From IMG/VR virus record IMGVR_UViG_3300027857_000019, positions 1 to 63,022 of that record: DNA of 63,022 nt. One strand, written 5' to 3'. The notes beneath the pieces were generated by a model. The model saw nothing but the letters and a program-made list of their open reading frames with translations, was not told the DNA's origin and ran no database searches. This document shows positions 13,858 through 51,924 of this stretch, piece by piece (position 1 is the stretch's first letter; every line of letters begins with the position of its first letter). The translations under genes and the position numbers were made by a program. The DNA comes from a virus. Taxonomy: Duplodnaviria; Caudoviricetes.

Positions 13858-13959
13858 GTAGCCAATTAGCCTAGGCGTCTAGCGCTCAGCGAGAATCAGG
13901 CCCGCAAGGCTGGCGATTTCTCCGGGTAGGATGCTGGCAGACGAAAAGGATTACGACGA

Positions 13960-22224: not shown

Positions 22225-22251
22225 ACTTGATTTACAGAAAGGAGCATCTGA

Positions 22252-25978: not shown

Positions 25979-25981
25979 CAC

Positions 25982-30810: not shown

Positions 30811-30828
30811 AAGGAGTATCATAGCGTC

Positions 30829-31521
30829 ATGGGCGGCTTCACTAATCCTTTGGGCAGTTCGCCGACAGCGGGTCCAGCCGCTCCGCTTGCGCCGCAGCCT
30901 AGTTCTGGCGATTCGCTGGCCGCTTACCTCCAATCACTTACGAATCGCGGGGCTACTACCGGCGGCGACCAGACCCAGGCTGGAGGTCAACTCCTGCAAT
31001 CCGGCGCAGGAACTACCGCGACAGGCTTGAATCAATTCACCGACCCGATCAACTATTGGAAGGCTATACTCGCCGGTGATCCAAATACGACATCGAGCGC
31101 ACTGGCCCCGACTGTGGCAAACGTAAACGCGCAATATGACGCTGCAAACAAGAGTTCTAGTCAGATGATGCCGAGGGGCGGATTTGCTTCGACGGTACGC
31201 GCGAATCTGCCATTTCAGAAGTCGGCACAGGTGAGCAACTCTATTCTCGGACTGCAACCGCAAGCCGCCAGCGCCTTGACAGGCATAGCGAATAATGAGT
31301 CTCAGATCGGACTCGGGCAACAAGGAATCGGCGTGAATGAGCAGGGGGTCGGGCTTCAGCAGTTGCAAGCGGCCTTACAGGCTCTCTTACAGCGGCGGCA
31401 ACAGAATGTCTCGCAGGATATTTCCAATACAGGCTTGCTAACTGGAGGACTCTCAAATCTTACGGGAGACATTCTAGGGAGTGGCCCTATCATGAAATCG
31501 CTAGGATTCCCAACTCCTTAG
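30829..31521 (+). CDS. DNA ejection/pilot-like protein
   Basis: Gly/Gln/Ala-rich; position after the nozzle in podovirus gene order. Confidence 0.55.
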   Translation: MGGFTNPLGSSPTAGPAAPLAPQPSSGDSLAAYLQSLTNRGATTGGDQTQAGGQLLQSGAGTTATGLNQFTDPINYWKAILAGDPNTTSSALAPTVANVNAQYDAANKSSSQMMPRGGFASTVRANLPFQKSAQVSNSILGLQPQAASALTGIANNESQIGLGQQGIGVNEQGVGLQQLQAALQALLQRRQQNVSQDISNTGLLTGGLSNLTGDILGSGPIMKSLGFPTP

Positions 31522-31525
31522 CCCT

Positions 31526-34949: not shown

Positions 34950-36185
34950 CTACCTCATGTGCTGAAGTTCACCTGATGATGGGGCCTTCGTGGATGTGGC
35001 GATATCGTAGGGAATTCCCTCATGCGCCCGATTACGGCATCGCTCCAAGAACTCTGTCGGGAATGCGCTACGCCCCGAATGCTGGAAACTCTCCTGAGGA
35101 GTGGCGCTCCAATTCGAGAGGAAGAAGTTGAGATTCCCCGCGCGCCGGTATTCCTCGCGTGTCGTTTCCCACCAGTAGAGGTTATCCTTGGGCAGGAAAT
35201 ACCGTTGCCAGCGCGTGTACAGGTGCGAGGTCTCCGAGACTTTCTTCGCGTGCAGGATGGACTGCTCGGCTGGTTCCCAATCGGTCGGCGGATGGCGGCG
35301 GTATTTCTTCGGCTCGGCGTACCAGGGAATAAAGATGTAGGTCCAGCGCGGATGTTTTCCCTTTCTGCAATCTTCGGTGAACTCGTGCCAGAAGTTGCCG
35401 CGGCCGGCCGGCACCGCCTCCATGCCGAACAGCGTGTTGATAGACTGTGGAATCGCAGGCATCAGGTCGAACTGAATCACGCCGGGATACTGCCATTGCG
35501 AGACCTCCGTCAAGTGGCCGATCTCGAATTGCCGCGATATTCCCATTGCGCCCTTTTGCGAGGATTCCTGATAGATGAGGCGGGAATTGTTTGCGAAGGC
35601 TAGATGCTCATCCTTCACGTCGTAGACGATGGCTGGCTTGAGAAATGATGGCAACTCCTGATACATGAACTTGTCGCGGTCGTAGACTTCGCGGATAAGA
35701 TCAGAATTGAGGCTGGCAGCCATACCGCGCGTGTGGTCGTTCAGCACGAGCCGATGGACCGACAGGCAGCGCCAGATCATCGTGAAGCCTATCTGCCGCG
35801 ATTTATTGCAGGCTACTAGGATGCCATCGACGGGCTCTCCACGAGAGCGTTGCTCATGGCATTCTTCCTCTTTCTTGCCGATCTTTTCCATGAGCATCTC
35901 TTGGGGCTCCCAGTAGTTGAGAGGGCCAGCGCCGCCGCCGACCGTTGCATCAATGTTGATGGTCAGATAGCGGTTGGCGCAGTACTGGAAATCCAGCTTG
36001 CAGAGGATTTGCTCGTTGTGAATGAAATCGTGATCTTCGCTCGTAATGGCTTTCTTCTTGGCTAGAAGCGCGTCGATCTCTTTGGCGCGTTCAATACTAA
36101 CGGCTGGCTTGTGGCGCTTTAGCTTGAGCTTGAGGGCCTTCTGGACCTTGTGAGTGTTCTGGTCTACGATGAGCGGGGAGTACAC
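34950..36185 (-). CDS. terL: Terminase large subunit, N-terminal ATPase domain only
   Basis: Q-motif WEPQ, Walker A-like KSRQIGFT, Walker B-like GHLTE, EAVPAGRGNFW, IFIPWY; ends before any nuclease motif. Confidence 0.85.
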   Translation of the reverse strand: MYSPLIVDQNTHKVQKALKLKLKRHKPAVSIERAKEIDALLAKKKAITSEDHDFIHNEQILCKLDFQYCANRYLTINIDATVGGGAGPLNYWEPQEMLMEKIGKKEEECHEQRSRGEPVDGILVACNKSRQIGFTMIWRCLSVHRLVLNDHTRGMAASLNSDLIREVYDRDKFMYQELPSFLKPAIVYDVKDEHLAFANNSRLIYQESSQKGAMGISRQFEIGHLTEVSQWQYPGVIQFDLMPAIPQSINTLFGMEAVPAGRGNFWHEFTEDCRKGKHPRWTYIFIPWYAEPKKYRRHPPTDWEPAEQSILHAKKVSETSHLYTRWQRYFLPKDNLYWWETTREEYRRAGNLNFFLSNWSATPQESFQHSGRSAFPTEFLERCRNRAHEGIPYDIATSTKAPSSGELQHMR

Positions 36186-37779: not shown

Positions 37780-37818
37780 TGCCTTTCACTATACACCTGA
37801 TGTCACGAAAAAGCATCG

Positions 37819-37849
37819 TGTAAACTTTGTGTACAGTTTGGAGTATGAT
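37819..37849 (+). promoter_or_regulatory. TGTAAACTTTGTGTACA palindrome plus TATGAT -10 in the divergent promoter region
   Basis: Read directly; same motif at 10117, 13841 and 22220. Confidence 0.6.
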
Positions 37850-37860
37850 AGCGAGATAAG

Positions 37861-39720
37861 ATGAGACTCCTAACTGGCACGGCCCTTTGCCTCTTCATGG
37901 CTATGCAGGGGGCCGTCGCTCAAGTCCCAGGCATCCCCATGCAAGGCTCGGATATGGTCTCCAATGGTCGAGCCATCATCAATAACGCCTTTCTTTTCCT
38001 GGGCAATGGCAAAGTCGCACGTTGGACAGGAGTAGGAGCACCAGGGTCAATCCCGCTGAGCGTACAGGGAGATCTCTACTACGACACGTCGGGCCTGCAC
38101 ACCTACGCCTGTTACTCAACAGTCTGCTCAACGGCTCCGAATTGGGCTCGCATCGACGGGCTCGTAACAGCGCCAGGTTCAAACGGGCAGTTGGTTTACA
38201 ATCTTTCGACGGCTTTCGCGGCGTTTACTCCAGGCGGAGATGTGACGTTTACCGCGCCAAATTTCACGGTAACGGGCACAGGCGGGGTCGCATTCGCCCC
38301 TTCCGCGACCACGAACGCTTTGAACGCTTCCAATATTTCCAGCGGCACGCTTCCCGCAGCACGGCTCCCGGCGACGGTTTTCCAGACTAATCAGAGCAAC
38401 ACGGTCACGACCGGCACGCAAGACTTTAGCGCGAGTCTTCACTTCATCCCGAAAACGGCCGCCAATGTTGGCGCACTGCCAGCTACAGGCTGTGCCGCCG
38501 GCGAAATAGCAATGGTCCTATCGGCTACTCTGGGACAGCAAATCTACGAGAATTCGGGTACCGGGGCCTGTGTATGGACGCAACAAGGAGGAGGCGGCGG
38601 TGGCGGCGCTTCGTGGGCATCCCAATTAAACGACTGGCTCATTACGCGCACATCGGCTACCGTTCTGACTATCTGTCAAGGCGCTTCGAGCACGACTCCC
38701 TGCGCCTTTCGCATTGGAACGCGAGTCTGGACATTTACCGCCGCCTCCACGGTCACTCTAACGACCGGCACAGGCTTGGCCTACATCGCGGGCGATGCTT
38801 CAGGAGTGATTGGAGTCTATGTCAATACGGCAAATTTCACGAGCGTCGCGTGCTCGGGTTGCACCGTGTTCAATGCGACTCAAGCCCCTACTGATGGAGT
38901 TGTGTTCGCCTCCTGGAATGCGACGGCGAATACATGGGACTCGACAGGAACTGATCTGCGGGCAGTCTTCAGTAATCGCGGCAAATTCGTGGCTTCAGCA
39001 ACGATCACTCCAGTAATCACTTCCGATTCGATCTCATTCAATGCCTTAGGCGGCGGTCCCACGCCCTCAGGCTTCTACCTGACTTCTGGCGGGACCTCGT
39101 ATTGTGGGCCGACGTTCCAGGTATGCACTCCTGCGAGTGGGCTAACGATCCTGACAACGGCGGGAAGTTCGACCGTCAACGCAAGCGGCGGTACCCAGGT
39201 GATTCAAGCGAAAGCAGCGGCAGGCGACAACATCATAGCAGTAGGGCAGGCCATTGCTGGCGGCAATACTTCCCTAACCGTGGCCGTCAACTGCTCGGCA
39301 TTTCCTTCAGCCAATAGCGTGTATCCGCAATGTGGCGTTGGGTTCAGGGAGTCTGCCACTGGGAAACTGGTCTTTATCGCGCAGCCTTTTTACAACCACC
39401 TTCAAGGCGGTTCGAGCGGCCTGACGCTCTATTCATTCACCAATCAAACGACCTTCGCTTCCACTCTCAGTTCAAACACCTTCACCTACATCGGCATGGG
39501 CACGATCTGGTGGGCGAAGTTGACGTGCTCGGTTGCCGGTTGCGCTACTGGCAATATCACAATTCAGACAAGCCCTGACGGGGTGAACTGGTCGCAGGGA
39601 TTCACTGAGGCAGTGGGTGGCCACTTCACGACAGCGCCGAATCAGTGGTACGCCTATGGTTCCAGTTCCTCTACGGACAACGATCTGTACGTTGACATCA
39701 TGAGCTTCCTGGTCCAATGA
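37861..39720 (+). CDS. Signal-peptide-bearing fibre/adhesin-like protein (619 aa)
   Basis: MRLLTGTALCLFMAMQGAVA-Q; GDLYYDTS and ASNISSGTLPAARLP fibre motifs; lectin-like C-terminus (TSPDGVNWS). Confidence 0.7.
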   Translation: MRLLTGTALCLFMAMQGAVAQVPGIPMQGSDMVSNGRAIINNAFLFLGNGKVARWTGVGAPGSIPLSVQGDLYYDTSGLHTYACYSTVCSTAPNWARIDGLVTAPGSNGQLVYNLSTAFAAFTPGGDVTFTAPNFTVTGTGGVAFAPSATTNALNASNISSGTLPAARLPATVFQTNQSNTVTTGTQDFSASLHFIPKTAANVGALPATGCAAGEIAMVLSATLGQQIYENSGTGACVWTQQGGGGGGGASWASQLNDWLITRTSATVLTICQGASSTTPCAFRIGTRVWTFTAASTVTLTTGTGLAYIAGDASGVIGVYVNTANFTSVACSGCTVFNATQAPTDGVVFASWNATANTWDSTGTDLRAVFSNRGKFVASATITPVITSDSISFNALGGGPTPSGFYLTSGGTSYCGPTFQVCTPASGLTILTTAGSSTVNASGGTQVIQAKAAAGDNIIAVGQAIAGGNTSLTVAVNCSAFPSANSVYPQCGVGFRESATGKLVFIAQPFYNHLQGGSSGLTLYSFTNQTTFASTLSSNTFTYIGMGTIWWAKLTCSVAGCATGNITIQTSPDGVNWSQGFTEAVGGHFTTAPNQWYAYGSSSSTDNDLYVDIMSFLVQ

Positions 39721-42700
39721 GAGACTTCGTTAGTACGTTCCTAAAAGCGTGGGCTCTGTTACTGCTCTGTATGTTCCTCGCGGCCGCACTGCTAGTATTT
39801 ATTCCAATAGCTCAGGCCGCGACCACCATCAATTCGATCTCCACCACGCCGACCCAGGCAATCGTGGCCGTGACGCGCCCTACCGCGAATCCTCTCACGG
39901 CAATCAAGGTGAGCGAAGATCCGGCATTTGGAACCATCCTTGACGATGTGAACCCCGCACTGTTCGCCAACGCGGATCAAGAGGCAGCGCACCTCGCAGT
40001 GCCGACGACAGTCAGCGGATCAAACACTATCGTCATCCTCCGTATCGGCCTGCGTACCTCTCAGCAATCCCTAACTGGCAGTGCGCCTGATAGCAAATGG
40101 CACTCGCGGGCGCTGGCGGCCTCAACGCACTACTACGTCACTGTTACCGGCGATGCTCCGGCGACAGGCGAGTTCGTCACGGCGACTACAGCCGGGATCG
40201 CGCCGGAAGGTCCTCCGCTTGATCCGAATGGCTTCGGACAGATGGGCAATTGCGAATACACGGACTTTTCCAAGCCTTGCATCGAGCCGCACACCGGACA
40301 AAAGATTTACTCCACCGACCCGAACGCCTGGGGTTCAAGCGCCATCGTGCCAATCAAGCCCCTCTGGTACTCTGGCGGAACGGGTTGGACGAACCTCTCG
40401 AATATCGCAGCCTATAGCGGAGCCGGGGCCACGACGGGGAATACGAATACGGTCTGCGTCTATCTTGGGGTTGACGGGAGCGTGTACAACAATTCCGCCA
40501 CGTTCGGCGCAACGGCGGGGTACTGGCCCTACAATAACCTGACCGATCTTGCGCTGGACTTGTACGGCGCCGGATCAGATGCCAGCGGGACAAACCGAAC
40601 AGTCCAAGGCGCTCTCTCGCTTGATTCCTGCCAAACCGCGTACACTCCGGCTCAGACGGTCGCGCTTCCGCATACGGCTCAGGCAGCCTCGGGAACACTG
40701 CCGAGCACGTACCCGAGCGCCTACTTCGCATCGTGGGGCGGAAAGGCTCTTCCACGCGCCGCCATGCCGCACCAAGGCTATGTGACGGCTTCGGCTGGAG
40801 TCGTAACGCTTACCGACACGGTGAGCGATGCTTTCGGTCACAGCATACCGATTGGGAATACGGCCCAAAGCGTCAACGCATACTTTGACAAGGACTGGGT
40901 AGCCGGAACCAAACTGCTCATCCCTGGCGGGAGCGCCAATTCAGGTGGCGCTTGCGTGAATGATTTTTGCACGATTGCCAGCGTGCAGAATGGGACACAC
41001 CTAACGCTTGTGGAGAATCTAACGATTGGGGTAGGGTCCACTGGATGTTCGGTGAGTTCATCCGGCTCAACCGGCTGCTACTACCACTCCGCTGGACTAG
41101 CGGCAATCCTGCAAAAGACCAACGCGACAGGGACGATCACCTTCAGCGCCCGCTGGAAAGTCGCGCAGTCTTATCCCCAGGATATTTGGACAGGCGGCCA
41201 TGCTATCGTTCCGGTGACGGCTTCAGACGGCTGCACGGGCTATCCGGCAATCTTCCCAAGCAACCGGCAGGAGGTCGGAGCGCTCTACCTCTCCTGTACC
41301 AGCGGCACGAACTCTCCTTCGTTGCGACTGATCTCTCAGTTTCCGAACAACGGCTGCACGAACGGGAGTTCGAACGATTGCCCTAGCGGCGCGATTCAGA
41401 ACCTTGGTCCCACTACTCCCCAGTTCGATCCGGTGGACCCGTCCCTTATGTACGTGACCAAGCCGACAAACGGCGGCCATACCGGATTGTTCAAAGTGAA
41501 GTACAACGCGACCGGAACATCATGCGGCGGCAGCGCGTGCGGCTGGCTCCCTTGGACTCACTGGAACACTCCATATTCTTCGACTACCATCGCCGCGCCA
41601 GTCACCAACGAGTTGACGTGGACGAACCTAACGCCATTTGTCGGCGGTCAGGATCTTCGCAGTCAGATCCTTGCGAATACCAACTACAGCGAAACATTGT
41701 GGGGGCCGCTCACCGGCTTCAACACGGCTGGCCTGGCTGGTCCGTTCATGATCCTCTACGTCCTTTCAGGCGGCCAGAATGTCACTGGCTGGATGTTCGC
41801 GTTCTGCACCTCGAGCGCCGGGGTATGTTCCGGTCCTGGCCCTGGAGGCTTTTACAAGGCATGGCGCACGGATGACTCAACGGCTGGCGGGACGGACGTT
41901 TCGAACGGAGCGCTGCGGTACAGCGGGATACACGCCATCACGCCGCTCTTTGGTTCGACCGTGGCTAACGGATCGGCCTTTCTGCTCTCGACTCACACGC
42001 TAAATGCCGGGACCTCGACCATCCTCAATAGTGGCCCTTACACCGGGACAATCACTGCCGTGAGCCGCGGCGGCGTCTTTAGCTCGAATACCGCGCTCCC
42101 CTGGCCGATTGATGGAACCTATGACAATACATGCCCTGGTGGATTGCCAGCGTGGGTAGTGGCTCGCGGGGCAGTCGGCAACCAGTGCGTACTTGTCCAG
42201 GGACAGTTGCCGTGTAACACCTTTGCGGGCGCGGCAGAGGCGGCCGCGCAGCCCTGCCCATACAACTCATCTTGGGGCTATATCAGTGCGGCCGGTGGAA
42301 CCAGCGGCCTTGAAGTTGGCGACTTTGGGAAGGACAATTCGGGCGATGCCGGCGGATTTGGTGGGGAAGATGACGAGGGCTTCATGGTCGTGACTACGCC
42401 CACGCTTGTCAGCGGGAGCACCTACCAGTGGTACATGCAACGTAATGCCAACTTCTCCTATTGCGCGTTCGGTAACGCGCAGTCCGTTCCGCCAAAGGAC
42501 GGCATTCAGTCTGCGGCGCAACTCCAGCACGCAAATGGCTGGGGATACCACATGGTTCCGCGCGACGGCTGCGCTGGCGGCTCTGCTCTGCTCGTGGATA
42601 TCGCAGGCAATAATGGCTACGCCTACAACTTCAATTTAATCACCGGGCATTTCGACGCTACCAATGTGGGACCGCAGGCGACCAGCATCATTGGCGCGGG

Positions 42701-43823
42701 GGCGCAACTACCGGACTTCTCCTTCATTTACAACATTCAGTCGCAATTCCCGTGGAGTTCCATTCCGAATCCGCGCAGTTCGTATCAAATACAAGGGCCG
42801 AAGTTCGCCGGATACAATTCGGACTTGGCTATCCAGTCCTACTCGAACACGAACCAAGCGGCGGCATCCGCGCTTCTAAAGCAGTACGCATTTGACTTTT
42901 CGACCTTCAACGCCGCGACTGGGGGTGATCTGGAATCTCCAGGGCAAACCATCGGAAGCCCGTTCGGAGCCTCACTGCAAGGCGGGACCACGGGCGTTTA
43001 TAGTTTGACCATTAGCGGGACTCCCGACATCAAGCATCAGAATCTCAACGTGTGGGTCGGGCGGCGGATGCTGATCGATATTTCCAGTCCCACGCTGGGC
43101 AATACAATCACCGACGCCAATGCGTACCGTTATTGCTACGCTTACAAGGCTGGCGAATGCCGCATCGGATCGGCGCAGGGAACGCTCTACGTCGCCGTTC
43201 CGTACCTCGATGTGGTTGACAGCCCGACGCAGTGCTGGGCTTCCCAGATGAACCTGAATATCCCGTGCGCGTTCGCCGGACCAACCGAGGGAGGTCAGGG
43301 CCGACAGGTCTACATGGGCTCATCTGACGGCGCGGCAGCACGGCAACGCTACCTCGGCTGGCTCGGCATGGGGCCTGGGCAGCAACAGGTGTACTCGAAG
43401 ATACTGCCAACGCCGGACGGGCTCTTCGGGCTGTTTGGCAGCTATGTGACCAACGGTTACGATACGACTCTGAAGATGGTCCAATTGCCGCCTCCAGCGA
43501 ACGATTCGGTCTCTAGGTCCACTTTTGTACCAGTTTCTGTCCAGTGTCCCACTGGAAGCACGTGCATTGCAGAGTTCGGATACGATGAGACCGGCTACGA
43601 CCACGCGAATAAGTTCTACTGCACGACCCGCGCTGAAAACTGCCGAGTAGTGAGCCCGACGATCAACGAAGCGAGCCCGTTCAGTTTCCCGTTTCCGACT
43701 GACGCAGCTCTCACGCCGGTAAGCGGTTCTATCCTGATTCCCGCGCTGCCGGGGCACGTGCTGTACTACCGTCTCATCATCGGCGGAAATCCAGGCCCAA
43801 CTCAGGTTGTGGCTGTGCAATGA
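39717..43823 (+). CDS. Large secreted Cys-rich beta protein (1368 aa)
   Basis: Hydrophobic N-terminus ending IAQA; many close Cys pairs; FN3-like start (LAASTHYYVTV). Confidence 0.7.
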   Translation: MRDFVSTFLKAWALLLLCMFLAAALLVFIPIAQAATTINSISTTPTQAIVAVTRPTANPLTAIKVSEDPAFGTILDDVNPALFANADQEAAHLAVPTTVSGSNTIVILRIGLRTSQQSLTGSAPDSKWHSRALAASTHYYVTVTGDAPATGEFVTATTAGIAPEGPPLDPNGFGQMGNCEYTDFSKPCIEPHTGQKIYSTDPNAWGSSAIVPIKPLWYSGGTGWTNLSNIAAYSGAGATTGNTNTVCVYLGVDGSVYNNSATFGATAGYWPYNNLTDLALDLYGAGSDASGTNRTVQGALSLDSCQTAYTPAQTVALPHTAQAASGTLPSTYPSAYFASWGGKALPRAAMPHQGYVTASAGVVTLTDTVSDAFGHSIPIGNTAQSVNAYFDKDWVAGTKLLIPGGSANSGGACVNDFCTIASVQNGTHLTLVENLTIGVGSTGCSVSSSGSTGCYYHSAGLAAILQKTNATGTITFSARWKVAQSYPQDIWTGGHAIVPVTASDGCTGYPAIFPSNRQEVGALYLSCTSGTNSPSLRLISQFPNNGCTNGSSNDCPSGAIQNLGPTTPQFDPVDPSLMYVTKPTNGGHTGLFKVKYNATGTSCGGSACGWLPWTHWNTPYSSTTIAAPVTNELTWTNLTPFVGGQDLRSQILANTNYSETLWGPLTGFNTAGLAGPFMILYVLSGGQNVTGWMFAFCTSSAGVCSGPGPGGFYKAWRTDDSTAGGTDVSNGALRYSGIHAITPLFGSTVANGSAFLLSTHTLNAGTSTILNSGPYTGTITAVSRGGVFSSNTALPWPIDGTYDNTCPGGLPAWVVARGAVGNQCVLVQGQLPCNTFAGAAEAAAQPCPYNSSWGYISAAGGTSGLEVGDFGKDNSGDAGGFGGEDDEGFMVVTTPTLVSGSTYQWYMQRNANFSYCAFGNAQSVPPKDGIQSAAQLQHANGWGYHMVPRDGCAGGSALLVDIAGNNGYAYNFNLITGHFDATNVGPQATSIIGAGAQLPDFSFIYNIQSQFPWSSIPNPRSSYQIQGPKFAGYNSDLAIQSYSNTNQAAASALLKQYAFDFSTFNAATGGDLESPGQTIGSPFGASLQGGTTGVYSLTISGTPDIKHQNLNVWVGRRMLIDISSPTLGNTITDANAYRYCYAYKAGECRIGSAQGTLYVAVPYLDVVDSPTQCWASQMNLNIPCAFAGPTEGGQGRQVYMGSSDGAAARQRYLGWLGMGPGQQQVYSKILPTPDGLFGLFGSYVTNGYDTTLKMVQLPPPANDSVSRSTFVPVSVQCPTGSTCIAEFGYDETGYDHANKFYCTTRAENCRVVSPTINEASPFSFPFPTDAALTPVSGSILIPALPGHVLYYRLIIGGNPGPTQVVAVQ

Positions 43824-45865
43824 AGGAGATCCTAATGCGATTGGTTTTGCTTTTCCTCTGCGCCGCTTCTCTATGGGCGCAGTACATTCCTCCAGGCGGC
43901 GGCACAGGCAACGGCATCACAAACGTTACATCCCTGCCGGCGACTTGCACGGCCAGCGGCTCTCCCAACGTGGTGTTCCTAACCACTGGAACGGTGGGTC
44001 CCTACGCTTGCCTCGCACCAAACACATGGACCTTCATCGGTACAGGTGGCAACACGCCGGGGGTCGCGGGCTACACGCTCTGCGCGAGTGGCTGCAATAC
44101 GACGATACCGGCGAGTGGGACAACCATCGCGGCGGCGACGCATGGACAGGGGCTTTACCCGTTCATCGGCGAATGTCTGGACGGTTCGGGGATTGCGATG
44201 GCCTGCAACTCCACGGTTAACACGACAACCGGGGCGCTGACGTTGAACTATTCCAGCGCTCCGTCTCAGGTGACTATCGTGGGCGCGACGGGCGGCTTCG
44301 CGAATCCCTTAACAACGCTCGGTGATCTGATGTATGAGAACGCCACGCCTGCCCCAACGCGGTTGGCGGGGAACACAACCAGCGCTCTGAACGTCCTGAC
44401 TCAGACCGGCACAGGCTCAGTAAGCGCCGCTCCCGCCTGGACGACTCTAGCGACAGCCGGGATTGCTCCGTCTTCCACGGCCGTCACAGCGTCAAGCCCT
44501 GGGGTAGGAATTGCCCATTTCGCCGGATCGACTCAGGCAGTTACCAGTTCTACCATCGTAGCCGCCGACATCGCCGCCAATACGATTACGTCGGGACAAG
44601 TGAACAACTCGATTGCGCTCACGGGCACCGACATTAACACGTCCAACCAAGTCACAGCTACTCATCTTGCCGCTCCACTCCCGCTCGCGCAGGGTGGAAC
44701 GAATTGCGCGACGCCGTATGCCATCAATCCGCAGACTACGACCTATCAGGTTGTCGCAGTGGATTTCACTTGTTCCAAGACGATCTCTGTTGCCTCTGGA
44801 ACGTTCACCATCACACTAGTCGCTTCCGGTTCGCAGCCTGTGGCTGGTTCTTATATTCAGGTTGTCAACTACGGTTCTGGCGTAGTCACCATCGCTCGGA
44901 GTGGACAGAATATAAACGGTGGCACCAGCAGTTTGACCCTTGAAGCGGCCAGCGCTACGATTCCTTCGGACTGCTTTATTCAATCCGACGGTACCAATTA
45001 TTTCGCATCTTGCGGGGCCGGAAATGCCCTCACGACCCAAGGAGATCTCAGCGTAGCCGGAGTAAATGGTATACCGTCTAGGCTAGCCGTTGGAGGGGCT
45101 ACAACCCTACTTCATGGCGGGGCTTCGACGCCCGCATATAGCGCACTTGCCTTAGCCGATACGCCATTGACCACCCGCGGCGATCTGCTGGTCGCGAATT
45201 CCACTCCAGCGCTCGGTAGACTCGCAATCGGCGCGGCGAATACGGTCCTGCACGGAAGCGCGACCGACCCTACGTATAGCGCCGTGGTGGGCGGAGACTT
45301 CGGTTCCTCGATCGCCGCGCGCGCGGGGCTGAATAATGCGACGGCCGCTGCGGCAGCGCCCACGTTCTCGACCACCGCCGACTTCCTCGCCTACCAGGTC
45401 GCCGAGATTCCGCAGGTTGTCTTCATGAATGCGGATTTCACGACATCGGGCGTCGGTACGGCACTCGAAGCGATTACCGGCCTCACTTGGACACTTCCCG
45501 GCTCAACGGCGCTGAACGTCTCTTTCTCTTGCCATCTCATCTATCACCAGAATAGCGCCGCCGCTGCCGTAGCCTTTGGCACTCAGAACGCGACTACAGC
45601 GCCCACAAATTACGCCGCTAAGGGTGTGATTTACACTAGCGCGAGCGTCTTTGCGGCGGCGAATGTCGTCGCCAACACAGCGACAACGGCCGTCTCAGTG
45701 GTGAGCGGCACACCATCCGCGATCACGACCAACTGGAATGCTGATCTCGATGGCCTCATTGAGCAGCCGTCCGGCACGGCAAGCGTGTTCACAATTCGCG
45801 TCTCGACTGCCACGGCCGCAGATACCGTGACGGTTAAGAGAGGAAGTTTTTGCCGCGTGAATTAA
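43820..45865 (+). CDS. Signal-peptide-bearing tail-fibre-like protein (681 aa)
   Basis: MRLVLLFLCAASLWA-Q; three LTT(L/Q/R)GDL...RLA repeats; LPLAQGGT motif. Confidence 0.75.
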   Translation: MKEILMRLVLLFLCAASLWAQYIPPGGGTGNGITNVTSLPATCTASGSPNVVFLTTGTVGPYACLAPNTWTFIGTGGNTPGVAGYTLCASGCNTTIPASGTTIAAATHGQGLYPFIGECLDGSGIAMACNSTVNTTTGALTLNYSSAPSQVTIVGATGGFANPLTTLGDLMYENATPAPTRLAGNTTSALNVLTQTGTGSVSAAPAWTTLATAGIAPSSTAVTASSPGVGIAHFAGSTQAVTSSTIVAADIAANTITSGQVNNSIALTGTDINTSNQVTATHLAAPLPLAQGGTNCATPYAINPQTTTYQVVAVDFTCSKTISVASGTFTITLVASGSQPVAGSYIQVVNYGSGVVTIARSGQNINGGTSSLTLEAASATIPSDCFIQSDGTNYFASCGAGNALTTQGDLSVAGVNGIPSRLAVGGATTLLHGGASTPAYSALALADTPLTTRGDLLVANSTPALGRLAIGAANTVLHGSATDPTYSAVVGGDFGSSIAARAGLNNATAAAAAPTFSTTADFLAYQVAEIPQVVFMNADFTTSGVGTALEAITGLTWTLPGSTALNVSFSCHLIYHQNSAAAAVAFGTQNATTAPTNYAAKGVIYTSASVFAAANVVANTATTAVSVVSGTPSAITTNWNADLDGLIEQPSGTASVFTIRVSTATAADTVTVKRGSFCRVN

Positions 45866-45874
45866 CGAGCCCAT

Positions 45875-48841
45875 ATGAGAACAATCGTCATCTCAATCCT
45901 TCTATTTTCCGCGCTCTTTGCGCAGACCAAAGATTCTGACCAGCGGTTGCTGAACTCCAAAACCTTCGCCAACCTCGGCACGCCCGCCAACGGAGCTATC
46001 GTCTACTGCTCGGACTGCACTGCGGCTAATCCAACGGCCAGCGGCGGCACTGGGGCCGTAGTGCGCCGTGAGAACGGAGCATGGAACGGCGGCGGAGGGA
46101 GCGGCGGCGTGTCGTCTTTTACGGGTGACGGAACGCTAATTACCAATTCAGCTTCGACCGGAGCCGTCACAGCCACACTCGGCAAAACCTTTCAAGGCAA
46201 CGGGACCAAGCTACAATTGTCCACCGGCACGACTACGACTGGCGACTGCGTAAAGTTCGACGCGAACGGCAATACTATAGACTCTGGAGGAGCTTGCGGC
46301 GGCGGCGGATCTCCGGGAGGCTCAACCACGCAGTTTCAGTTTAACGATGCCAGTTCGTTTAATGGTACGGCTGGCTTCACCTGGGATAAAAACAATCCCG
46401 GCCTATCCCTATCCCTTATCAATCCCCTGCAAGGCAACGACGCCAACGACCGCCGAGGCGCGCGGTTCGCATTCACGACCGACTCCAGCACATCCAATCC
46501 GAACTTCTCGGATCAGAACGGGCTAGAAATTGTACAGACAATTCTCAACGGTCAGGCGACAAACGGTGGCGCGACGACAGCTAAGACTACCTTCCTAACC
46601 CTGAACCTCTCGCAGACCGGCTACGGCTCTGGCCAGAGAATCCCGTTTGGTATCGGCCAAATCTCATACGGCATGAGCGACAGCGGACTGATGAGTATTA
46701 CTAACCAATATGCCGGTGGTCCGGTCAATGGCGATGAGTGCGACGGGTGCTTTTCGACCGTCTCTTATTCGAAGCAGCAACCGTCTCTGGCGCTGACAAC
46801 TATCAGTAGTGTCGTGACTCCATCCACATGCAATACGACCAGCACGCAATCCATCACAGCAAACATAGCGGTTCAGACCGTCACTGTTGCAAGTTCGACA
46901 GGCTGCAACATCGGGAATTACGTCATCATCGGCCAGGAGGTTGCATCGGGCTCTCCCAATCTTGAAGCCGTCAAGATCACAGCGAGTGCGGCCGGAAGCA
47001 TTTCCGGCATCTTTCGCTATACCCATTCCAACGGAGTGACCGTCACGCCAGCTACGGTCCTGGCGGTTGCCGATGTCAGCAAGTTCGGACAAGACCGGGT
47101 ATTGGTCGATATGTCGGCTACGAGCTACACGACCGGCACTGTGGCGTCAATCTCCGGTGGTGGATTCACCGGCTCAGGGACTACCTGGGCGAACAATATG
47201 GTCGGCGGAACTGCAACCAATATCGGCTGCGTCTCGCTGACTAACGATAACTTCACGGTCACACCATTTGACAACGGCGCGAACATTCTGCGGTCTTGGT
47301 ACCAGATCACGAGTGTAACTTCGGCCACGAGCATTGGAATTTTCACCTACTCCGTTGCTGGTGATATGGCCTATCGTGGTAACGGGGTTGGATCGGGTGC
47401 GTATACGATTCGCCCTTGTGCGAGGGTGCTTCTGATAGAAAGCTCCGCAGGTTCATTCACCGGAAACGTGATTCTGGAGAACAACAGTTTCACTTGGACG
47501 GCGGCGGATAATATCGAAGTGGCGATAAGTCCGTACCCTGACGTGACCGGATTTCAGTACAACATTGCGGCTTGGACCCCTGGTGGAACGTATCGCCAGT
47601 TTATGAACGTCACCAACTCCGGGGCGCGTAAATTTTCAGGTGGGTTCAATTTGGTAAGTGCCCTTGCGGTTGGCGGCGGTGCAGACACAGTGGCTTGGGA
47701 TACAGGCTATGCTGTAGATAGTGCCAACACGGGCTTCTCAATCGGGGAAACTCGAACAGGGAACGCTTTCCTAGCAACCGCGACACCCACAAACTCAACA
47801 ACAAAGAAGCCTTGCTATAACTTTGTGGGAGCTGCCCTGGCTGGCGGAGTGTGCGCTGATTACGATACCGCCCTTGTCGGTCTCACGGGACAAAGCACCG
47901 ACAATCTTAGCACCGGGGGATTTGCAAAAGTTACGGTAGATTATGTAAACAACCCAGACGGTAAAGGAATTATTACCGCCGTTGGACATTTCACAATTGA
48001 TGGGTCGCGGGCTGGATCAAACGGCCCGCTAGTTACTATTAAATCTGCCAGCAACGACACCTTACAATTTGCCATGAATGCCGGGAGTACTACAGACACA
48101 GGGAGAGGCGGAACCATTGAAGAAGTTGTCAATTATCACCATGCCTCAGACCCATTTGTCAGTTATGGCTCGATGATTGAAACGGGCGTTCAGATGAATG
48201 ATGGAGCAAACAACACAGCGTTTGGGTCGTTTGGGGCCACGAAAATAGCGGCAAGCTCCTCACCCGCCACGAACGCAAGTTCTAATCTGATTTGGTACAA
48301 CGCCTCGGTTTGGACCGGATCAGTGGCGCGGAACACTTGGATGTTTAACAGGGCGTACCCAGGAGTCTCCGGTAACAACGCTCATGTGGAATGGCAAGTA
48401 GCCGGGTTAGATCCTGCTCAGACATGGAATGCTACTTTCCCGTCTGTTTTTGCTGGCGTGAATGACCAAGGAAAATTCAGGTTTGGAAATGAGAACCTTC
48501 CCCAGGCATCCTCGGTAATGGCTACGCTCGATCCAACCGGGTTGACTGCCTCTCGTCTCTTCACTATGCCAGACATGGCGGGAACCTTCGCCTTAGACTT
48601 GACAGGAACAACAGGAACCATCAGCGGTGCGGTAACTGCCGGAGTATGTGACTCAGGGACGGCTACGGTGACAGGAGCGACCACTGGAATGGGTGTGGTG
48701 GCAACACCTATAACTTATCCTGGAGACGGAACAGTGTGGTACGGTTACGTAAGTGGCTCCAACACTGTCACCGTCAAAGTTTGCGGTTTGACGGTTGTGA
48801 CCCCAAGCGCAAGTGCTTACAACGTGAGGGTGATTAAATGA
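45875..48841 (+). CDS. Signal-peptide-bearing tail-fibre-like protein (988 aa)
   Basis: MRTIVISILLFSALFA-Q; GDCVKFDANGN, GGSTTQFQFNDASSF and C-terminal TVTGATTG...NTVTVK fibre motifs. Confidence 0.75.
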   Translation: MRTIVISILLFSALFAQTKDSDQRLLNSKTFANLGTPANGAIVYCSDCTAANPTASGGTGAVVRRENGAWNGGGGSGGVSSFTGDGTLITNSASTGAVTATLGKTFQGNGTKLQLSTGTTTTGDCVKFDANGNTIDSGGACGGGGSPGGSTTQFQFNDASSFNGTAGFTWDKNNPGLSLSLINPLQGNDANDRRGARFAFTTDSSTSNPNFSDQNGLEIVQTILNGQATNGGATTAKTTFLTLNLSQTGYGSGQRIPFGIGQISYGMSDSGLMSITNQYAGGPVNGDECDGCFSTVSYSKQQPSLALTTISSVVTPSTCNTTSTQSITANIAVQTVTVASSTGCNIGNYVIIGQEVASGSPNLEAVKITASAAGSISGIFRYTHSNGVTVTPATVLAVADVSKFGQDRVLVDMSATSYTTGTVASISGGGFTGSGTTWANNMVGGTATNIGCVSLTNDNFTVTPFDNGANILRSWYQITSVTSATSIGIFTYSVAGDMAYRGNGVGSGAYTIRPCARVLLIESSAGSFTGNVILENNSFTWTAADNIEVAISPYPDVTGFQYNIAAWTPGGTYRQFMNVTNSGARKFSGGFNLVSALAVGGGADTVAWDTGYAVDSANTGFSIGETRTGNAFLATATPTNSTTKKPCYNFVGAALAGGVCADYDTALVGLTGQSTDNLSTGGFAKVTVDYVNNPDGKGIITAVGHFTIDGSRAGSNGPLVTIKSASNDTLQFAMNAGSTTDTGRGGTIEEVVNYHHASDPFVSYGSMIETGVQMNDGANNTAFGSFGATKIAASSSPATNASSNLIWYNASVWTGSVARNTWMFNRAYPGVSGNNAHVEWQVAGLDPAQTWNATFPSVFAGVNDQGKFRFGNENLPQASSVMATLDPTGLTASRLFTMPDMAGTFALDLTGTTGTISGAVTAGVCDSGTATVTGATTGMGVVATPITYPGDGTVWYGYVSGSNTVTVKVCGLTVVTPSASAYNVRVIK

Positions 48842-48998
48842 GTGATATCGCAATAATGAGTGTGTTCGTAATAGTCACAGTGACGTGGATAGCGTTCGAT
48901 GAACATCGCAGACGCAAACGTAACGGTCACACCCTGACCATCGGAGATCCAGAATGATCCTACGCCGCTCTGCACAACTGACAGACAAGGAAGGCAGG

Positions 48999-49325
48999 AT
49001 GCTCAAAAGGTTGACGCACGTTCTCGCAGGAGTTGTTCTGACCATCATGCTATGGGGTGTATGGACGGTCGCCCACAACGGTCTTATCGCTTCCCATCTC
49101 GCGGTTAAGCCGCCGGAAATTACGCGCTACGGGCCTCCAACTTTTGGCGACGAAGAGGCTCCAGGCTGTATCTCAATCACTGAGGACGATCCTGGAATAG
49201 CTGTAACAGCTGAGTCGCGCTCGGCTCTAAAGAGTTACTCCGATAGGAACTTTAAGATCCGGCCATGCGCCAAAATGTCAAGCAGGCGGGCAATGGAATC
49301 ATTGCGCCAGAAAGGAAACAGATGA
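48999..49325 (+). CDS. Single-TM/exported hypothetical protein
   Basis: N-terminal hydrophobic helix; Cys pair. Confidence 0.5.
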   Translation: MLKRLTHVLAGVVLTIMLWGVWTVAHNGLIASHLAVKPPEITRYGPPTFGDEEAPGCISITEDDPGIAVTAESRSALKSYSDRNFKIRPCAKMSSRRAMESLRQKGNR

Positions 49326-49837
49326 ATCGAAGACTTCAGAGAAGACTTGAGAGGATTTCCTCCTACTGTATCGGCGCATTGGTGGTCGTAGTGTGGATAG
49401 TAACGACAATCGTCGCCGCAGAGACGCCGAAGCCTAAGGATGCTCACCAGTCGGGACTCGTGACTTCCGCTCCGGCTCCCGCAAAGGATACTTCCGTCAC
49501 TCCGTTGCCAGCTTCGATGTCCACGGCGGAATTGAAAGCTAAGCCCTTTGCCGAAGCCGTTCAAGCGCCACCGCAAGAATCCATCGCCAAACCAGCGCCG
49601 CCGCCCGTCATCCCCGAGAAACTGGAGATCCTCTATTTTCGCGCCGCGCTGGAAAGCGTGACTGCCGCACGCGCGGCCGACCAAGCCTTTGAGCGCGAGA
49701 AAGCTGTGAGTAAGGAAGTGCAGACCGCCTGCGGTTCAGCCTTCACGCCCACTGAACAGATGCGCCCCGACGGCAAACCGGCCGGTCGCCTGATCTGCGC
49801 TCCACTCCCAGCGCCTCCCGCCCCTCCCGCCAAATAG
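49322..49837 (+). CDS. Membrane-anchored periplasmic protein (spanin-like possible)
   Basis: Basic N-terminus + TM, Pro-rich linker, coiled coil, two Cys. Confidence 0.5.
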   Translation: MNRRLQRRLERISSYCIGALVVVVWIVTTIVAAETPKPKDAHQSGLVTSAPAPAKDTSVTPLPASMSTAELKAKPFAEAVQAPPQESIAKPAPPPVIPEKLEILYFRAALESVTAARAADQAFEREKAVSKEVQTACGSAFTPTEQMRPDGKPAGRLICAPLPAPPAPPAK

Positions 49838-49841
49838 CCGC

Positions 49842-49881
49842 TTGACATTTGCAATCTGCTAGCACATGATGGCAGATAGCA
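49842..49881 (+). promoter_or_regulatory. Promoter TTGACA-17-CATGAT with overlapping inverted repeat TGCAATCTGC/GCAGATAGCA
   Basis: Read directly, upstream of a small RHH gene. Confidence 0.55.
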
Positions 49882-50022
49882 ATGCCGAAGCCTGTCTACT
49901 GCCGCTTGGAGGATCCGATTTACGAGCGCTTCGTGAAGGCTGCGAACGCCGAGTATCTGTCTCTATCGAGTGCAATGCGGCAGGCAATCGCAATGTGGCT
50001 GAAGAAAAAGGAGAAACGATGA
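49882..50022 (+). CDS. Ribbon-helix-helix DNA-binding protein (46 aa)
   Basis: Manual translation MPKPVYCRLEDPIYERFVKAANAEYLSLSSAMRQAIAMWLKK. Confidence 0.7.
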   Translation: MPKPVYCRLEDPIYERFVKAANAEYLSLSSAMRQAIAMWLKKKEKR

Positions 50023-50306
50023 AGCCGACAATTCTGAATATCCAGGGCTCGAACCCGAGCGGAATGGGCGATCCGGCGGCCGACCCACGTGGCCCACAGT
50101 CCATCACCGTCAACGGCAGCGGCCTTGCCAATGCCAAGTTTTTCATTTACGAAGGCCCCGGCGTCGAGGAAGGCGTACGGGCGTACTTCCCGAACGACAC
50201 GAGCCTCCTGGCAGTGGCGAAACTGCTGGTCAAAGGACCGTATCAGGCGCTTGTCGTGACTAGTGACGGGCAGGCGAGCGATTGGTTCAGCTTTCAGGTG
50301 GGGTAA
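50019..50306 (+). CDS. IPT/Ig-like small protein
   Basis: AAGGAG RBS; QSITVNGSGL...DGQASDWFSFQV pattern. Confidence 0.6.
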   Translation: MKPTILNIQGSNPSGMGDPAADPRGPQSITVNGSGLANAKFFIYEGPGVEEGVRAYFPNDTSLLAVAKLLVKGPYQALVVTSDGQASDWFSFQVG

Positions 50307-50309
50307 CGC

Positions 50310-50711
50310 ATGAGCCTTTGGCAGGATATCCTCGTGCAATTCGGCATCATTCCACCACCGCTGACTTGGGCGCCAGCCTATGAGCAGGTGTACATCACCT
50401 TCACGTGGCCTGATGGCTCTCAAATACAGTACCCGATGGACCCGCACGAACAGGTCACGGCAGATACGGCTGAGCACCTACGGGCGATCTACGACCCGCA
50501 GGGCACGGTCGTGGAGCATTCCATTCTCGGCGAGGGTGGGCCGTCTGTCGGGCCAGCGCTACGATTCCTACAGTGGCCTGCGACCCCAGACGGCAAGCAG
50601 GTGTCTATTCTCGCCTCGGCGCTTGCGAAGGCTTGGGATCAGTATCCGCTGGACCCAAAGCAGGCGGATGCTGCGGTGCGCAAGATAATCGCAGGGTATG
50701 GGGCCGCCTGA
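50310..50711 (+). CDS. Hypothetical protein
   Basis: 133 aa, in operon. Confidence 0.6.
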   Translation: MSLWQDILVQFGIIPPPLTWAPAYEQVYITFTWPDGSQIQYPMDPHEQVTADTAEHLRAIYDPQGTVVEHSILGEGGPSVGPALRFLQWPATPDGKQVSILASALAKAWDQYPLDPKQADAAVRKIIAGYGAA

Positions 50712-50714
50712 TCC

Positions 50715-51068
50715 GTGGCCGCAGTCGTCGTCCCAATCCTCGCCGCACTGGAACCTGTGATAGCCCCACTCGTGATTCAGTTGATTGACAAAGCCTTTCC
50801 GCCGCGGACTGGCTCAACCAAGTTCACGACTGCCGTTTCCTGGTTCGAGAGCCTCTTTGCTGGACTGGCGAAGGTTAATCCTGCAACCGCCGTGCCCGAT
50901 CAGCCGACCATATCCGGTTGGGTTCAGAGCCTCGTGGACGGACTAAATAAGGCAGGAGCGTTGAAGGGACCGGCGACCGTCATCCCGACGACAACTGGCG
51001 GATTGGACAATGCCATCTCCGTGCTAAACTGGCTGAAAAGTTCACCGATACCAATTGGAGGCGTATGA
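50715..51068 (+). CDS. Amphipathic/holin-like hypothetical protein
   Basis: 117 aa, hydrophobic N-terminus. Confidence 0.5.
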   Translation: MAAVVVPILAALEPVIAPLVIQLIDKAFPPRTGSTKFTTAVSWFESLFAGLAKVNPATAVPDQPTISGWVQSLVDGLNKAGALKGPATVIPTTTGGLDNAISVLNWLKSSPIPIGGV

Positions 51069-51222
51069 CCGACCCGCTTGACAAACTAATCGAGAAGGCC
51101 AAGGTGGATATTGAGACCGCCGTGCAACTAGCTTTGGCGAGGATGGCGCTCGGCAGAATCGTATCCATCAATCCAGCTTGGGCCGACCGGGCGAAGGCTG
51201 CGCTGGACAGCACCGGAGAAGA

Positions 51223-51924
51223 GTGAGCTTCGACCCGGCGCTCTGCCTAGACCCAATTCTCAAACTCTCTCAGGCAGCGTACAATCCCGCGCTGATGCCG
51301 GCCGGATGGGAGATCGTAGCGACGGTCCAGCCGGGAGACTTTGGCTTTCTCGTGGCGAACAGCCACCCAGCCGTATCAGTTGCGGCCTTCATTATCCGCG
51401 GCACGGAGCATCTTGAGGAGTGGCTGGCAGACTTCGACGCGCGACCAGTGCCCGATCTATACGGTGGTTGCGGACACGTGGCGCGAGGCTTTCAGGATGT
51501 GTACTCCGAAATCCGCACCAGTCTATTCAGGCCATTGTTGCCGGCCTTCGCGTATGACGAATTGCACGTGATCGGGCATTCGCTCGGAGGAGCGCTATCG
51601 CAGTTGTTCGCGAAGGAGTTAGCCATGCGCTTCCAGCGCAAGATGACGGATGGCCCGAAGATTGTGGTAGAGCCGACGCTATGGACCTTCGAGTCTCCGC
51701 GCCCGTTCTGGATGGACGCCGTGCAGGAGTTCAACCAACTGGTAACGGAGTACTGGCGCGTTGAGAACCGGCCTGACATCGTGCCGCACGCTCCGCCTAC
51801 CGATGCTGGATACCAAGCTGGTGGATCGCTTGTGGCTGTCAGTGCGCCGTTCTCGCTGGACGTGCATGTCAACCACTCGCTGGCTTCGGTTGCACTGGGC
51901 TTGCAGAAGTTGGTAACGTCATGA
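51223..51924 (+). CDS. Class 3 lipase (alpha/beta hydrolase)
   Basis: IRGT, EWLADF, VARGF, GHSLGG nucleophile elbow, DIVPH, NHS. Confidence 0.9.
   Translation: MSFDPALCLDPILKLSQAAYNPALMPAGWEIVATVQPGDFGFLVANSHPAVSVAAFIIRGTEHLEEWLADFDARPVPDLYGGCGHVARGFQDVYSEIRTSLFRPLLPAFAYDELHVIGHSLGGALSQLFAKELAMRFQRKMTDGPKIVVEPTLWTFESPRPFWMDAVQEFNQLVTEYWRVENRPDIVPHAPPTDAGYQAGGSLVAVSAPFSLDVHVNHSLASVALGLQKLVTS

Follow-up and report, generated by a model that had tools for sequence, protein, structure and literature searches.

What does a tailed phage do with four large, cysteine-rich proteins that each open with a putative signal peptide, when tail fibres and tailspikes are textbook cytoplasmic proteins? The question is raised by an 11-kb block of four genes, here named P1 to P4, in the 63,022-bp IMG/VR record IMGVR_UViG_3300027857_000019, the whole of which was analysed and is called the window below. 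The record is a complete phage genome with direct terminal repeats (the 127-nt ends are identical), and the block takes up 17% of its length, outside the tail module and beyond the packaging genes. A 63,036-bp contig encoding the same P2 was binned in a metagenome-assembled genome (MAG) of Candidatus Sulfotelmatobacter sp. (class Terriglobia, Acidobacteriota) and chromosomal homologues are found in Terriglobia MAGs; the host is a Terriglobia soil bacterium. An earlier note on this DNA, made from the letters alone, had read the block as an operon of Sec-exported, fibre-like proteins that fold oxidatively in the periplasm and probably serve the virion. Our analysis agrees on export and oxidative folding, and leans tentatively towards another destination, in which P1–P4 would act on the host envelope as free proteins.

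The four genes (Table 1) follow one another on the same strand, P1 and P2 as well as P2 and P3 overlapping by 4 nt (ATGA) and P3 and P4 being separated by 9 nt. Each gene is read from the first ATG to follow the stop upstream of it; P3 could also begin at 43835, behind AAGGAG, and keeps its signal peptide with either start. The arrangement points to one translationally coupled operon, probably expressed late. At its N-terminus P1 reads MRLLTGTALCLFMAMQGAVA before a mature start QVPGIP, the leader of P2 ends in ...LLVFIPIAQA before ATTINS, P3 reads M(KEILM)RLVLLFLCAASLWA before QYIPPG and P4 reads MRTIVISILLFSALFA before QTKDSD. Each of these N-termini has a basic n-region followed by a hydrophobic core free of charged residues, with small residues at −3 and −1, the pattern expected for Sec and signal peptidase I (SPase I); position +1 is taken by Q in P1, P3 and P4 and by A in P2. 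The hydrophobic core of P2 is unusually long (24 residues, against about 8–20 in the criterion used).

A home-made heuristic flagged all four open reading frames (ORFs) of the operon against a background of 13 of the 78 other ORFs in the window, most of the latter being transmembrane proteins or antisense ORFs. Among ORFs of at least 300 amino acids (aa) it flagged five of 18, namely the four and one that is antisense to the head gene, which leaves the operon proteins as the only real ORFs of that size in the genome with a signal-like N-terminus by this measure. Applied to their relatives, the same heuristic found signal-like N-termini in 120 of 150 (P1), 19 of 24 (P2), 95 of 119 (P3) and 27 of 44 (P4). 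In the homologues the signal peptide lies at the same position, is divergent in sequence and is followed by a conserved mature N-terminus; because it is kept in place while its sequence varies, the signal peptides look real. A small-x-small↓Q site was present in most of the signal-like relatives (94 of 120 for P1, 88 of 95 for P3, 17 of 27 for P4 and 14 of 19 for P2), counts that accept any candidate site and may be too high. Lipoprotein processing by SPase II was considered and rejected, no lipobox Cys being present at +1, and so was anchoring as a PEP-CTERM protein, through a type IX secretion system (T9SS) C-terminal domain or as an autotransporter, as Pfam (E ≤ 1) and inspection of the termini by eye yielded none of these, nor an outer-membrane anchor. 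Gln at +1 is thus very common in the relatives and, by eye, also in unrelated Terriglobia host proteins nearby (..AFG↓QQ, ..AVA↓QT, ..SFG↓QT; L018, L020, L021 and L034–L037), and a plant-type glutaminyl cyclase (PF05096) was found in two of the five Terriglobia genomes searched.

The mature parts of the proteins contain 14 (P1), 30 (P2), 12 (P3) and 14 (P4) Cys, in every case an even number and mostly arranged as neighbouring pairs 3–26 residues apart. This corresponds to a Cys content of 1.4–2.4%, as against 0–0.86% in the signal-less tail and internal proteins encoded at 22452–34584, or two to three times the level in signal-less structural proteins of the phage. From this pattern we infer that disulfides are formed in the periplasm. 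Judged from the sequences, export to the periplasm and oxidative folding are very probable. On these points the account given in the earlier note holds well: the four consecutive large ORFs are present with the lengths that it gave, each opens with a signal peptide as judged by the N-terminal pattern and by its position in homologues, the mature N-termini are those that it had written out, and the many close Cys pairs that it had described are found, even in number, in all four mature proteins.

Family libraries say little about what P1–P4 are. None of the four had a match in Pfam, PHROGs or NCBIfam, the sole exception being a chance-level PHROG endolysin match for P1 (E 0.22); P1–P3 matched no PHROG tail family, and neither an S74 domain nor any other Pfam family was found in P1–P4 at E ≤ 1. 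Sequence and profile searches of the PDB were empty as well, P2 alone giving one chance-level match (E 0.81) and the profiles A1 and A3 giving none. Among GenBank phages P1 had one partial match (28%) and P4 one 38-residue match, while P2 and P3 had none; if the Tunturi isolates lie within this GenBank phage set, they have no detectable homologue. Searching the Atlas with P2 yielded no usable match. All-against-all BLAST of the window proteins, at E ≤ 1e-3, detected neither paralogous pairs nor repeats within a protein. The motifs that the earlier note had called typical of phage fibres are all present, with SNISSGTLPAARL at residue 157 of P1, LTTxGDL at residues 164, 404 and 450 of P3, and DCVKFDANGN at residue 124 of P4; that they are typical of fibres was only partly checked, strict regular expressions for them being rare among the other matches.

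P1, for which 657 relatives were found (E ≤ 1e-3), is a mosaic of an N-terminal region, a repeat region, a central domain and a C-terminal domain. Its N-terminal region, with the motif ...RAIINNAFLFL, is shared with other signal-bearing proteins, and one relative (P0075) retains QVPGIPM behind a different signal peptide. The repeat region, marked by the SNISSGTLPAARL motif, reaches up to 34 copies in other proteins, and the central domain (about residues 186–400) is common to hundreds of mostly signal-bearing proteins starting ..AQTRVDLRTQSKNVDFS... For the C-terminal domain (about residues 385–619) fold comparison gave only leads, to ConA-type jelly rolls, with TM (template modelling) scores of 0.55–0.69 depending on the row. 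P1 looks like a fibre-like protein with a lectin-like C-terminal domain.

P2 belongs to a family with 22 full-length homologues (32–60% identity), in which a short and variable hydrophobic leader stands directly before a conserved mature start (..TTINSISATATQAL..; TTINSIS/ATATQAL) and 12 Cys are invariant and paired across 22 members. Searched alone, P2 had no relatives in IMG/VR; alignment A1 found three. A model of residues 34–1233, built from 25 sequences, is all-beta (predicted local distance difference test, pLDDT, 71; predicted TM score 0.68). With VIA-align, positions 1–124 of this model resembled an FN3-like domain (Z 8.8, root-mean-square deviation, rmsd, 2.4, 84 residues aligned), positions 175–450 a jelly roll of CBM32/CBM6 type (Z 9.0, rmsd 3.3, 123 aligned) and positions 459–983 a WD40-type propeller (Z 8.4, rmsd 4.0, 192 aligned). 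The best local Foldseek matches were phage endosialidases (phi92, K1F; probability 0.66–0.87, E 5e-4 to 4e-3, TM score 0.17 or less), with other sialidases, GH74, Vps10 and lectin propellers further down, all at low TM score. These fold matches, like those of P4 below, are weak to middling and come from whole-chain models (VIA-align on models of 1200 and 972 residues, Z 9 or less). The predicted succession of FN3, CBM-like jelly roll and one or more beta-propellers suggests a secreted carbohydrate-active or lectin architecture for P2, and not a fibre. In two viral loci (L015, 4178–5011; L016, 1877–2734) the P2-like gene is followed by an ORF that looks patatin-like by eye (MKTILSIDGGGIRGL...), and then by terminase and portal-sized genes.

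P3 carries three LTTxGDL...RLA repeats. The trimer prediction that the earlier note had proposed as a check came out in favour of a fibre for its C-terminal part, residues 396–681, the only segment covered: these were predicted to form an intertwined homotrimer with a score of 0.89 (best control, 0.00), the runs agreeing in at least 81% of contacts with a pLDDT of at least 79. In calibration, 21 of 30 proteins solved as pairs attained this mark and none of 23 solved as single chains did so, two copies being used there and not three. On this prediction P3 looks like a trimeric fibre.

P4 contains the motifs YCSDC and DCVKFDANGN, and the stretch with the latter was matched in 10 of 12 related IMG/VR loci. 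Its core (about residues 150–640) is common to fibre proteins of other phages, both with and without a signal peptide, and is 41–53% identical to signal-less proteins with classic fibre N-termini, in which it forms the distal part. Signal-less proteins with this core include P0012, P0015, P0017, P0019, P0020, P0021, P0023, P0025, P0031 and P0033 (34–53%) and P0036 (32%), and in locus L003 such a gene lies inside the tail module. In some signal-bearing relatives, P0009 and P0010 among them, the signal peptide is by contrast set directly on the P4 core with no docking region between. The 12 IMG/VR loci with P4 relatives comprise nine with a clear signal peptide, one (L002) with a transmembrane-like N-terminus, L003 with a normal fibre N-terminus and one that is unclear. 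Since the core occurs in both contexts, the same module is used either with a docking N-terminus or with an export signal. The structural model of P4 is confident only in the core (pLDDT 80–95, about residues 280–600 of the mature chain), where Foldseek matched the depolymerase of Klebsiella phage P560 (E 7e-5, probability 0.66–0.69, low TM score) and, further down, GH110, AP22 gp54 and K64-1 S2-4, and VIA-align gave small beta-barrels of a kind repeatedly present in tail and capsid proteins of phages (Z 9 or less). P4 looks like a fibre- or tailspike-like protein.

The survey of signal-peptide fibres in related phages that the earlier note had suggested turned up tandem blocks of large signal-bearing proteins in five of 15 related viral loci (L004, L008, L009, L012 and L014). 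In a complete 62.8-kb relative (G005), whose portal is 40% identical to that of the window, a signal-peptide block (835, 264 and 1106 aa) is located between the terminase and a homologue of the window's DnaJ-type zinc-finger gene. Residues 22–122 of its 835-aa protein match residues 1–106 of the window's own 698-aa spike-like protein (51% identity over 107 columns, E 4e-25), the gene for which sits between two tail genes conserved in both phages.

Relatives of P1 and P2 are found on chromosomes too. A sample of 301 genomes from the class to which genome G001 belongs contained 11 with P2-like ORFs, and BLAST placed a P1-like signal-bearing gene directly upstream of the P2-like one in G001, G021, G081 and viral locus L014; in G306 the neighbour is a 615-aa protein with the P1-family N-terminal motif and no BLAST match, and G242 has none. 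Six chromosomal contexts were examined, most homologues coming without genomic context. The copies in G021 and G306 are flanked by exopolysaccharide genes (Bac_transf, GT1/GT4 and asparagine synthases) and that in G001 by an epimerase, GT2 and OmpA; the G242 copy lies among ffh, trmD and secDF (by eye), which is not an exopolysaccharide locus. No phage genes were seen near the P1-like/P2-like pair in the Terriglobia exopolysaccharide loci. We considered, and leave open, a prophage origin of the chromosomal copies: the window portal has no match in G001 or G002 and the flanks are housekeeping or exopolysaccharide genes, but an ORF that looks integrase-like by eye lies about 18 kb from the G001 copy. 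The same modules turn up in fibres of virions, in proteins that phages export and in exopolysaccharide loci of the host, and move among these settings. Some of the chromosomal copies are apparently decaying, as the match to the P1-like gene of G002 (C34:354594-355182) is spread over two frames and G306 (C4, L036/L037) has its P2-like gene split into two ORFs of 437 and 732 aa.

The timing of expression is approached through a palindrome upstream of P1. When up to three mismatches are allowed, GTGTAAACTTnnTnTACAG has six matches at five intergenic sites, against 0.11 expected, so that the shared late palindrome to which the earlier note had appealed is real. The 20-mer that precedes P1 has no second exact copy in the window; what recurs is the degenerate palindrome, the 34-nt blocks at 22214 and 37813 (family D11) being 76% alike. 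Two 20-kb stretches of G005, covering the structural genes and the signal-peptide block of that phage, yielded no copy of the palindrome. The palindrome is a candidate element for late regulation or for RNA processing; its sites support joint control of the operon and the morphogenesis genes and are silent on where the proteins go.

The reading that we prefer, tentatively and at a little less than an even chance, is that the operon is a late, exported, disulfide-stabilised module that targets the polysaccharide of the host envelope by means of free extracytoplasmic proteins. P1–P4 would be made together with the virion proteins, exported by Sec, probably cleaved by SPase I and stabilised by disulfides in the periplasm, and would then accumulate outside the cytoplasm of the infected Terriglobia cell and be absent from virions, with P2 as the conserved partner of P1. 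As free proteins they would bind, and probably cut or remodel, exopolysaccharide or another envelope glycan, also in the matrix after lysis; progeny would in this way be freed from matrix and cell debris, and receptors might be removed or masked. We favour such free, glycan-targeting proteins because the P1/P2 pair is at home in exopolysaccharide loci of the host, a setting from which exported glycanases of phage-spike fold are known (WceF; PMC7949094), because P2 resembles a carbohydrate-active enzyme or lectin, because some signal-bearing P4 relatives have no docking region, and because the operon stands outside the tail module. Several observations weigh against it. No catalytic or glycan-binding site was identified in P1–P4, and all fold matches are weak (low TM score, Z 9 or less); the signal peptides themselves were judged with a crude heuristic and by eye; and 11 kb of a 63-kb genome is much for an accessory function. 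P1–P4 have no paralogue among the signal-less structural proteins of the phage (E ≤ 1e-3), which speaks against a receptor-masking or receptor-destroying copy, since a protein copied from the receptor-binding protein of the virion should show up as its paralogue. Furthermore, the core and the fibre motifs of P4 are those of bona fide tail fibres, and the domain shared between the two phages follows directly on a well-formed signal peptide in the 835-aa protein of G005, whereas the window's spike-like ORF is signal-less, as the earlier note had said of its tailspike at 23882.

This last comparison implies that a single N-terminal domain has either acquired or shed a signal peptide, and a signal peptide before the N-terminal domain of a spike fits docking on the virion after export. 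An unlikely, if serious, alternative accordingly makes P1–P4 the receptor-binding proteins of the virion, exported, oxidatively folded and docked on tails when holin or endolysin breaches the inner membrane or after lysis; in one variant the conserved 408-aa tail protein might serve as their adapter. Besides the G005 protein it can draw on the P4 core being common to signal-less classic fibres, with the L003 gene in a tail module, on the likeness (by eye) of the post-signal ...RAIINNAFLFL of P1 to the ...NNNFTELY and ...INANFVELY N-termini of signal-less relatives, on the predicted homotrimer of P3, on the palindrome common to the operon and the morphogenesis genes, on the recurrence of signal-bearing tandem blocks in related viral loci and on the sheer size of the block; here the lack of a paralogue among virion proteins is as expected, if P1–P4 themselves determine specificity. 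Docking would, however, have to occur within the short lysis interval, the operon lies apart from the tail module and past the packaging genes, and in the limited set of literature searched we met no earlier case of a tailed phage that exports its tail fibres by Sec. Three results speak most directly against it: P2 is not fibre-like, the P1/P2-like pair stands in Terriglobia exopolysaccharide loci with no phage genes nearby, and in some signal-bearing P4 relatives there is no region between signal peptide and core that could dock. The exported fibre-like system put forward in the earlier note is thus partly supported, in export, in oxidative folding, in the shared palindrome and in the fibre-likeness of P3 (trimer prediction) and P4 (core found in signal-less fibres), while its virion role is the less likely reading. 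Broader still is the proposal that this Terriglobia phage lineage routinely exports its receptor-binding fibres or spikes by Sec, bonds them by disulfides in the periplasm and attaches them to finished particles at the lysis breach, the same N-terminal domain toggling between signal-bearing and signal-less forms in sister phages; this we consider quite unlikely.

Another reading, decidedly improbable, has P1–P4 staying with the envelope of an infected or lysogenic cell, either exposed on it or held within it, and acting as adhesins or shields, for superinfection exclusion by receptor masking or for tethering neighbouring cells. They would then be comparable to the Bdellovibrio fibres described next, to lambda Lom or to T5 Llp, and not to factors that degrade glycans. 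Signal peptides joined to trimeric fibre architecture would suit such a role, as would the surface-located, signal-bearing and phage-fibre-like mosaic adhesive trimer (MAT) fibres of Bdellovibrio (PMC10769870) and the proposal that Q-rule genes of Porphyromonas gingivalis phages modify the outer membrane (PMC10367356). Against it stand the lack of every anchor sought above with Pfam and by eye, the palindrome that ties the operon to late morphogenesis genes, the lack of a paralogue among the phage's own candidate receptor-binding proteins, and the fact that neither an integrase nor a lysogeny module came to light in the window, where the search was not exhaustive. Finally, the hydrophobic N-termini might not be functional signal peptides at all, being wrong starts or uncleaved anchors of ordinary cytoplasmic fibres or spikes. 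The long hydrophobic stretch of P2 and the 13 other ORFs flagged by the heuristic could be cited for this, yet it has hardly any chance of being right in view of the use of the first ATG in all four genes, the ATGA coupling of P1 to P2 and of P2 to P3, the constant place of the signal peptide in most homologues with its conserved mature start and Q at +1, and the even, paired and abundant Cys. We retain free, exported, glycan-targeting proteins as our preferred reading.

The remainder of the genome (Table 1) provides the setting of the operon. Gene order and the T7-like fibre N-terminus of the 408-aa protein suggest a podovirus-like phage. No tRNA was found in the window, and no endolysin was recognised anywhere in the genome. 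Directly downstream of P4, two ORFs (123 and 190 aa) with an N-terminal transmembrane segment, three small ORFs and a class-3 lipase gene form what may be the lysis region. The epimerase gene and a neighbouring small ORF lie amid the run of structural genes; as a glycan-related auxiliary gene, the epimerase fits a phage that has to contend with the polysaccharide of its host. The terminase is seemingly split and scattered, its two parts being 27 kb apart on opposite strands, while their homologues in G005 (423 and 298 aa) adjoin each other. Upstream of the operon, on the other strand, a 213-aa protein has a DnaJ-type CXXCXGXG zinc finger (Pfam below the cut-off, E 3e-4; Anti-TRAP, E 5e-6), and its homologue in G005 (33% identical) is encoded directly upstream of the signal-peptide block there; it could be a regulator of, or a chaperone for, the exported proteins. 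Two further ORFs have export-like N-termini. One contains ...MDLSRRALLKSLAALVTAPTIPVM, which by eye resembles a twin-arginine (Tat) signal and, if so, would make its product a further exported phage protein; the other, read from an internal Met, is MRFTLLLFPFCLQASLIVTG followed by QSP, a Sec-like signal peptide with Gln at +1.

Table 1. Coordinates of the operon, the palindrome sites and other features of the window
Feature	Position	Strand	Remarks
Palindrome	5291-5309		early region
ORF with Sec-like signal peptide from internal Met	6754-7506	−	
Putative terminase part	7892-8851	+	
ORF with Tat-like signal	8779-9321	+	
Palindrome	10116-10134		abuts portal ATG
Portal	10133-12058		phrog_156, E 9e-13
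Palindrome	13840-13858		100 nt before 266-aa scaffold-like gene
Major head protein	15261-16187		phrog_9953
408-aa tail protein with T7-type fibre N-terminal region	16994-18220		phrog_24607 + 1591
Small ORF next to epimerase	20475-21176	+	
Nucleotide-sugar epimerase	21298-22224	+	phrog_540, E 4e-72
Palindrome	22219-22237		15 nt before small ORF opening the tail-gene run at 22252
Spike-like ORF, 698 aa, signal-less	23882-25978	+	tail module, outside operon
Terminase large-subunit-like gene	34950-36185	−	
DnaJ-type zinc-finger protein, 213 aa	36609-37250	−	
Palindrome GTGTAAACTTTGTGTACAG	37818-37836	+	25 nt before P1
P1, 619 aa	37861-39720	+	signal peptide aa 1-20 (AVA↓Q)
P2, 1368 aa	39717-43823	+	signal peptide aa 1-34 (AQA↓A)
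P3, 681 aa (676 aa from ATG 43835)	43820-45865	+	signal peptide ...LWA↓Q
P4, 988 aa	45875-48841	+	signal peptide aa 1-16 (LFA↓Q)
Possible lysis region	48954-51924	+	directly downstream of P4
Class-3 lipase	51178-51924	+	Pfam Lipase_3, E 4e-18
HNH endonuclease			recognised in window
RecT			recognised in window

Phages are well known to send proteins through the export pathways of the host to work in its envelope; examples are signal-arrest-release (SAR) or Sec endolysins, spanins, T5 Llp and lambda Lom and Bor. These exported lysis and exclusion proteins are small, single and of defined roles, in contrast to an 11-kb block of fibre-like and propeller proteins. The virion depolymerases of podoviruses (for example the K1F and phi92 endosialidases and those of Klebsiella phages) share with P1–P4 the trimeric fibre or spike, the mosaic of modules and the weak fold matches of P2 and P4; they nevertheless fold in the cytoplasm, have no signal peptide and carry an N-terminal particle-binding domain, unlike the present proteins with their signal peptides, paired Cys and location outside the tail module. 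In the limited set of literature searched we found no operon of fibre- or spike-like proteins with Sec signals in a tailed phage, nor any account of fibre modules that exist both with and without a signal peptide. The individual pieces have precedents, namely exported phage proteins, Q-rule genes, MAT trimers and WceF. WceF of Pantoea stewartii is a Tat-exported enzyme of tailspike fold that is encoded in an exopolysaccharide cluster and active on the polymer (PMC7949094). It resembles the present proteins in being exported, in its phage-tailspike-like trimeric fold and in its exopolysaccharide locus, where the chromosomal P1-like/P2-like cassettes are likewise sited, and differs in being a single bacterial beta-helix protein with a Tat signal, whereas here a phage-borne, Sec-type late operon of four genes includes the propeller-based P2. 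The MATs of Bdellovibrio bacteriovorus are described as signal-bearing, phage-fibre-like mosaic trimers with varied C-terminal binding domains (PMC10769870). Like P1–P4 they are proteins resembling phage tail fibres that work outside the cytoplasm; they differ in being chromosomal genes of a predator, as opposed to a phage late operon. MATs have a conserved domain of ~130 aa after the signal and, in many, an S74 chaperone-protease domain, which Pfam (E ≤ 1) did not find in P1–P4. P. gingivalis phages are reported to carry Q-rule signal-peptide genes of unknown function, in which cleavage exposes an N-terminal Gln, and the authors propose adaptation to Sec and modification of the envelope (PMC10367356); the hosts there are Bacteroidota, and here Terriglobia. 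The absence of a signal peptide in tail fibres and tailspikes has been used as an argument for phage origin (PMC6199706), and the Tunturi virus paper, the only one on cultured Acidobacteriota phages met in the literature searched, mentions neither 'signal peptide' nor 'tail fiber' (PMC11924767).

A complete phage genome thus spends 17% of its length on four very probably exported proteins that resemble fibres, spikes or carbohydrate-active enzymes. If P1–P4 are free factors, they would represent a new class of phage-encoded secreted proteins that target matrix or receptors in one of the most abundant soil phyla, and would also be candidate exopolysaccharide depolymerases. Were they virion parts instead, they would reveal an unrecognised extracytoplasmic step in phage assembly, and routine export of fibres or spikes in this lineage, if true, would give the assembly of tailed phages a final step outside the cytoplasm. 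Judged from how often Gln stands at +1, the 'Bacteroidetes Q-rule' may hold in Terriglobia as well, beyond the phylum for which it is named. Either way, the P1–P4 families, with hundreds of members and none in Pfam, PHROGs or NCBIfam, offer a handle on the biology of the phage–host surface in Acidobacteriota.

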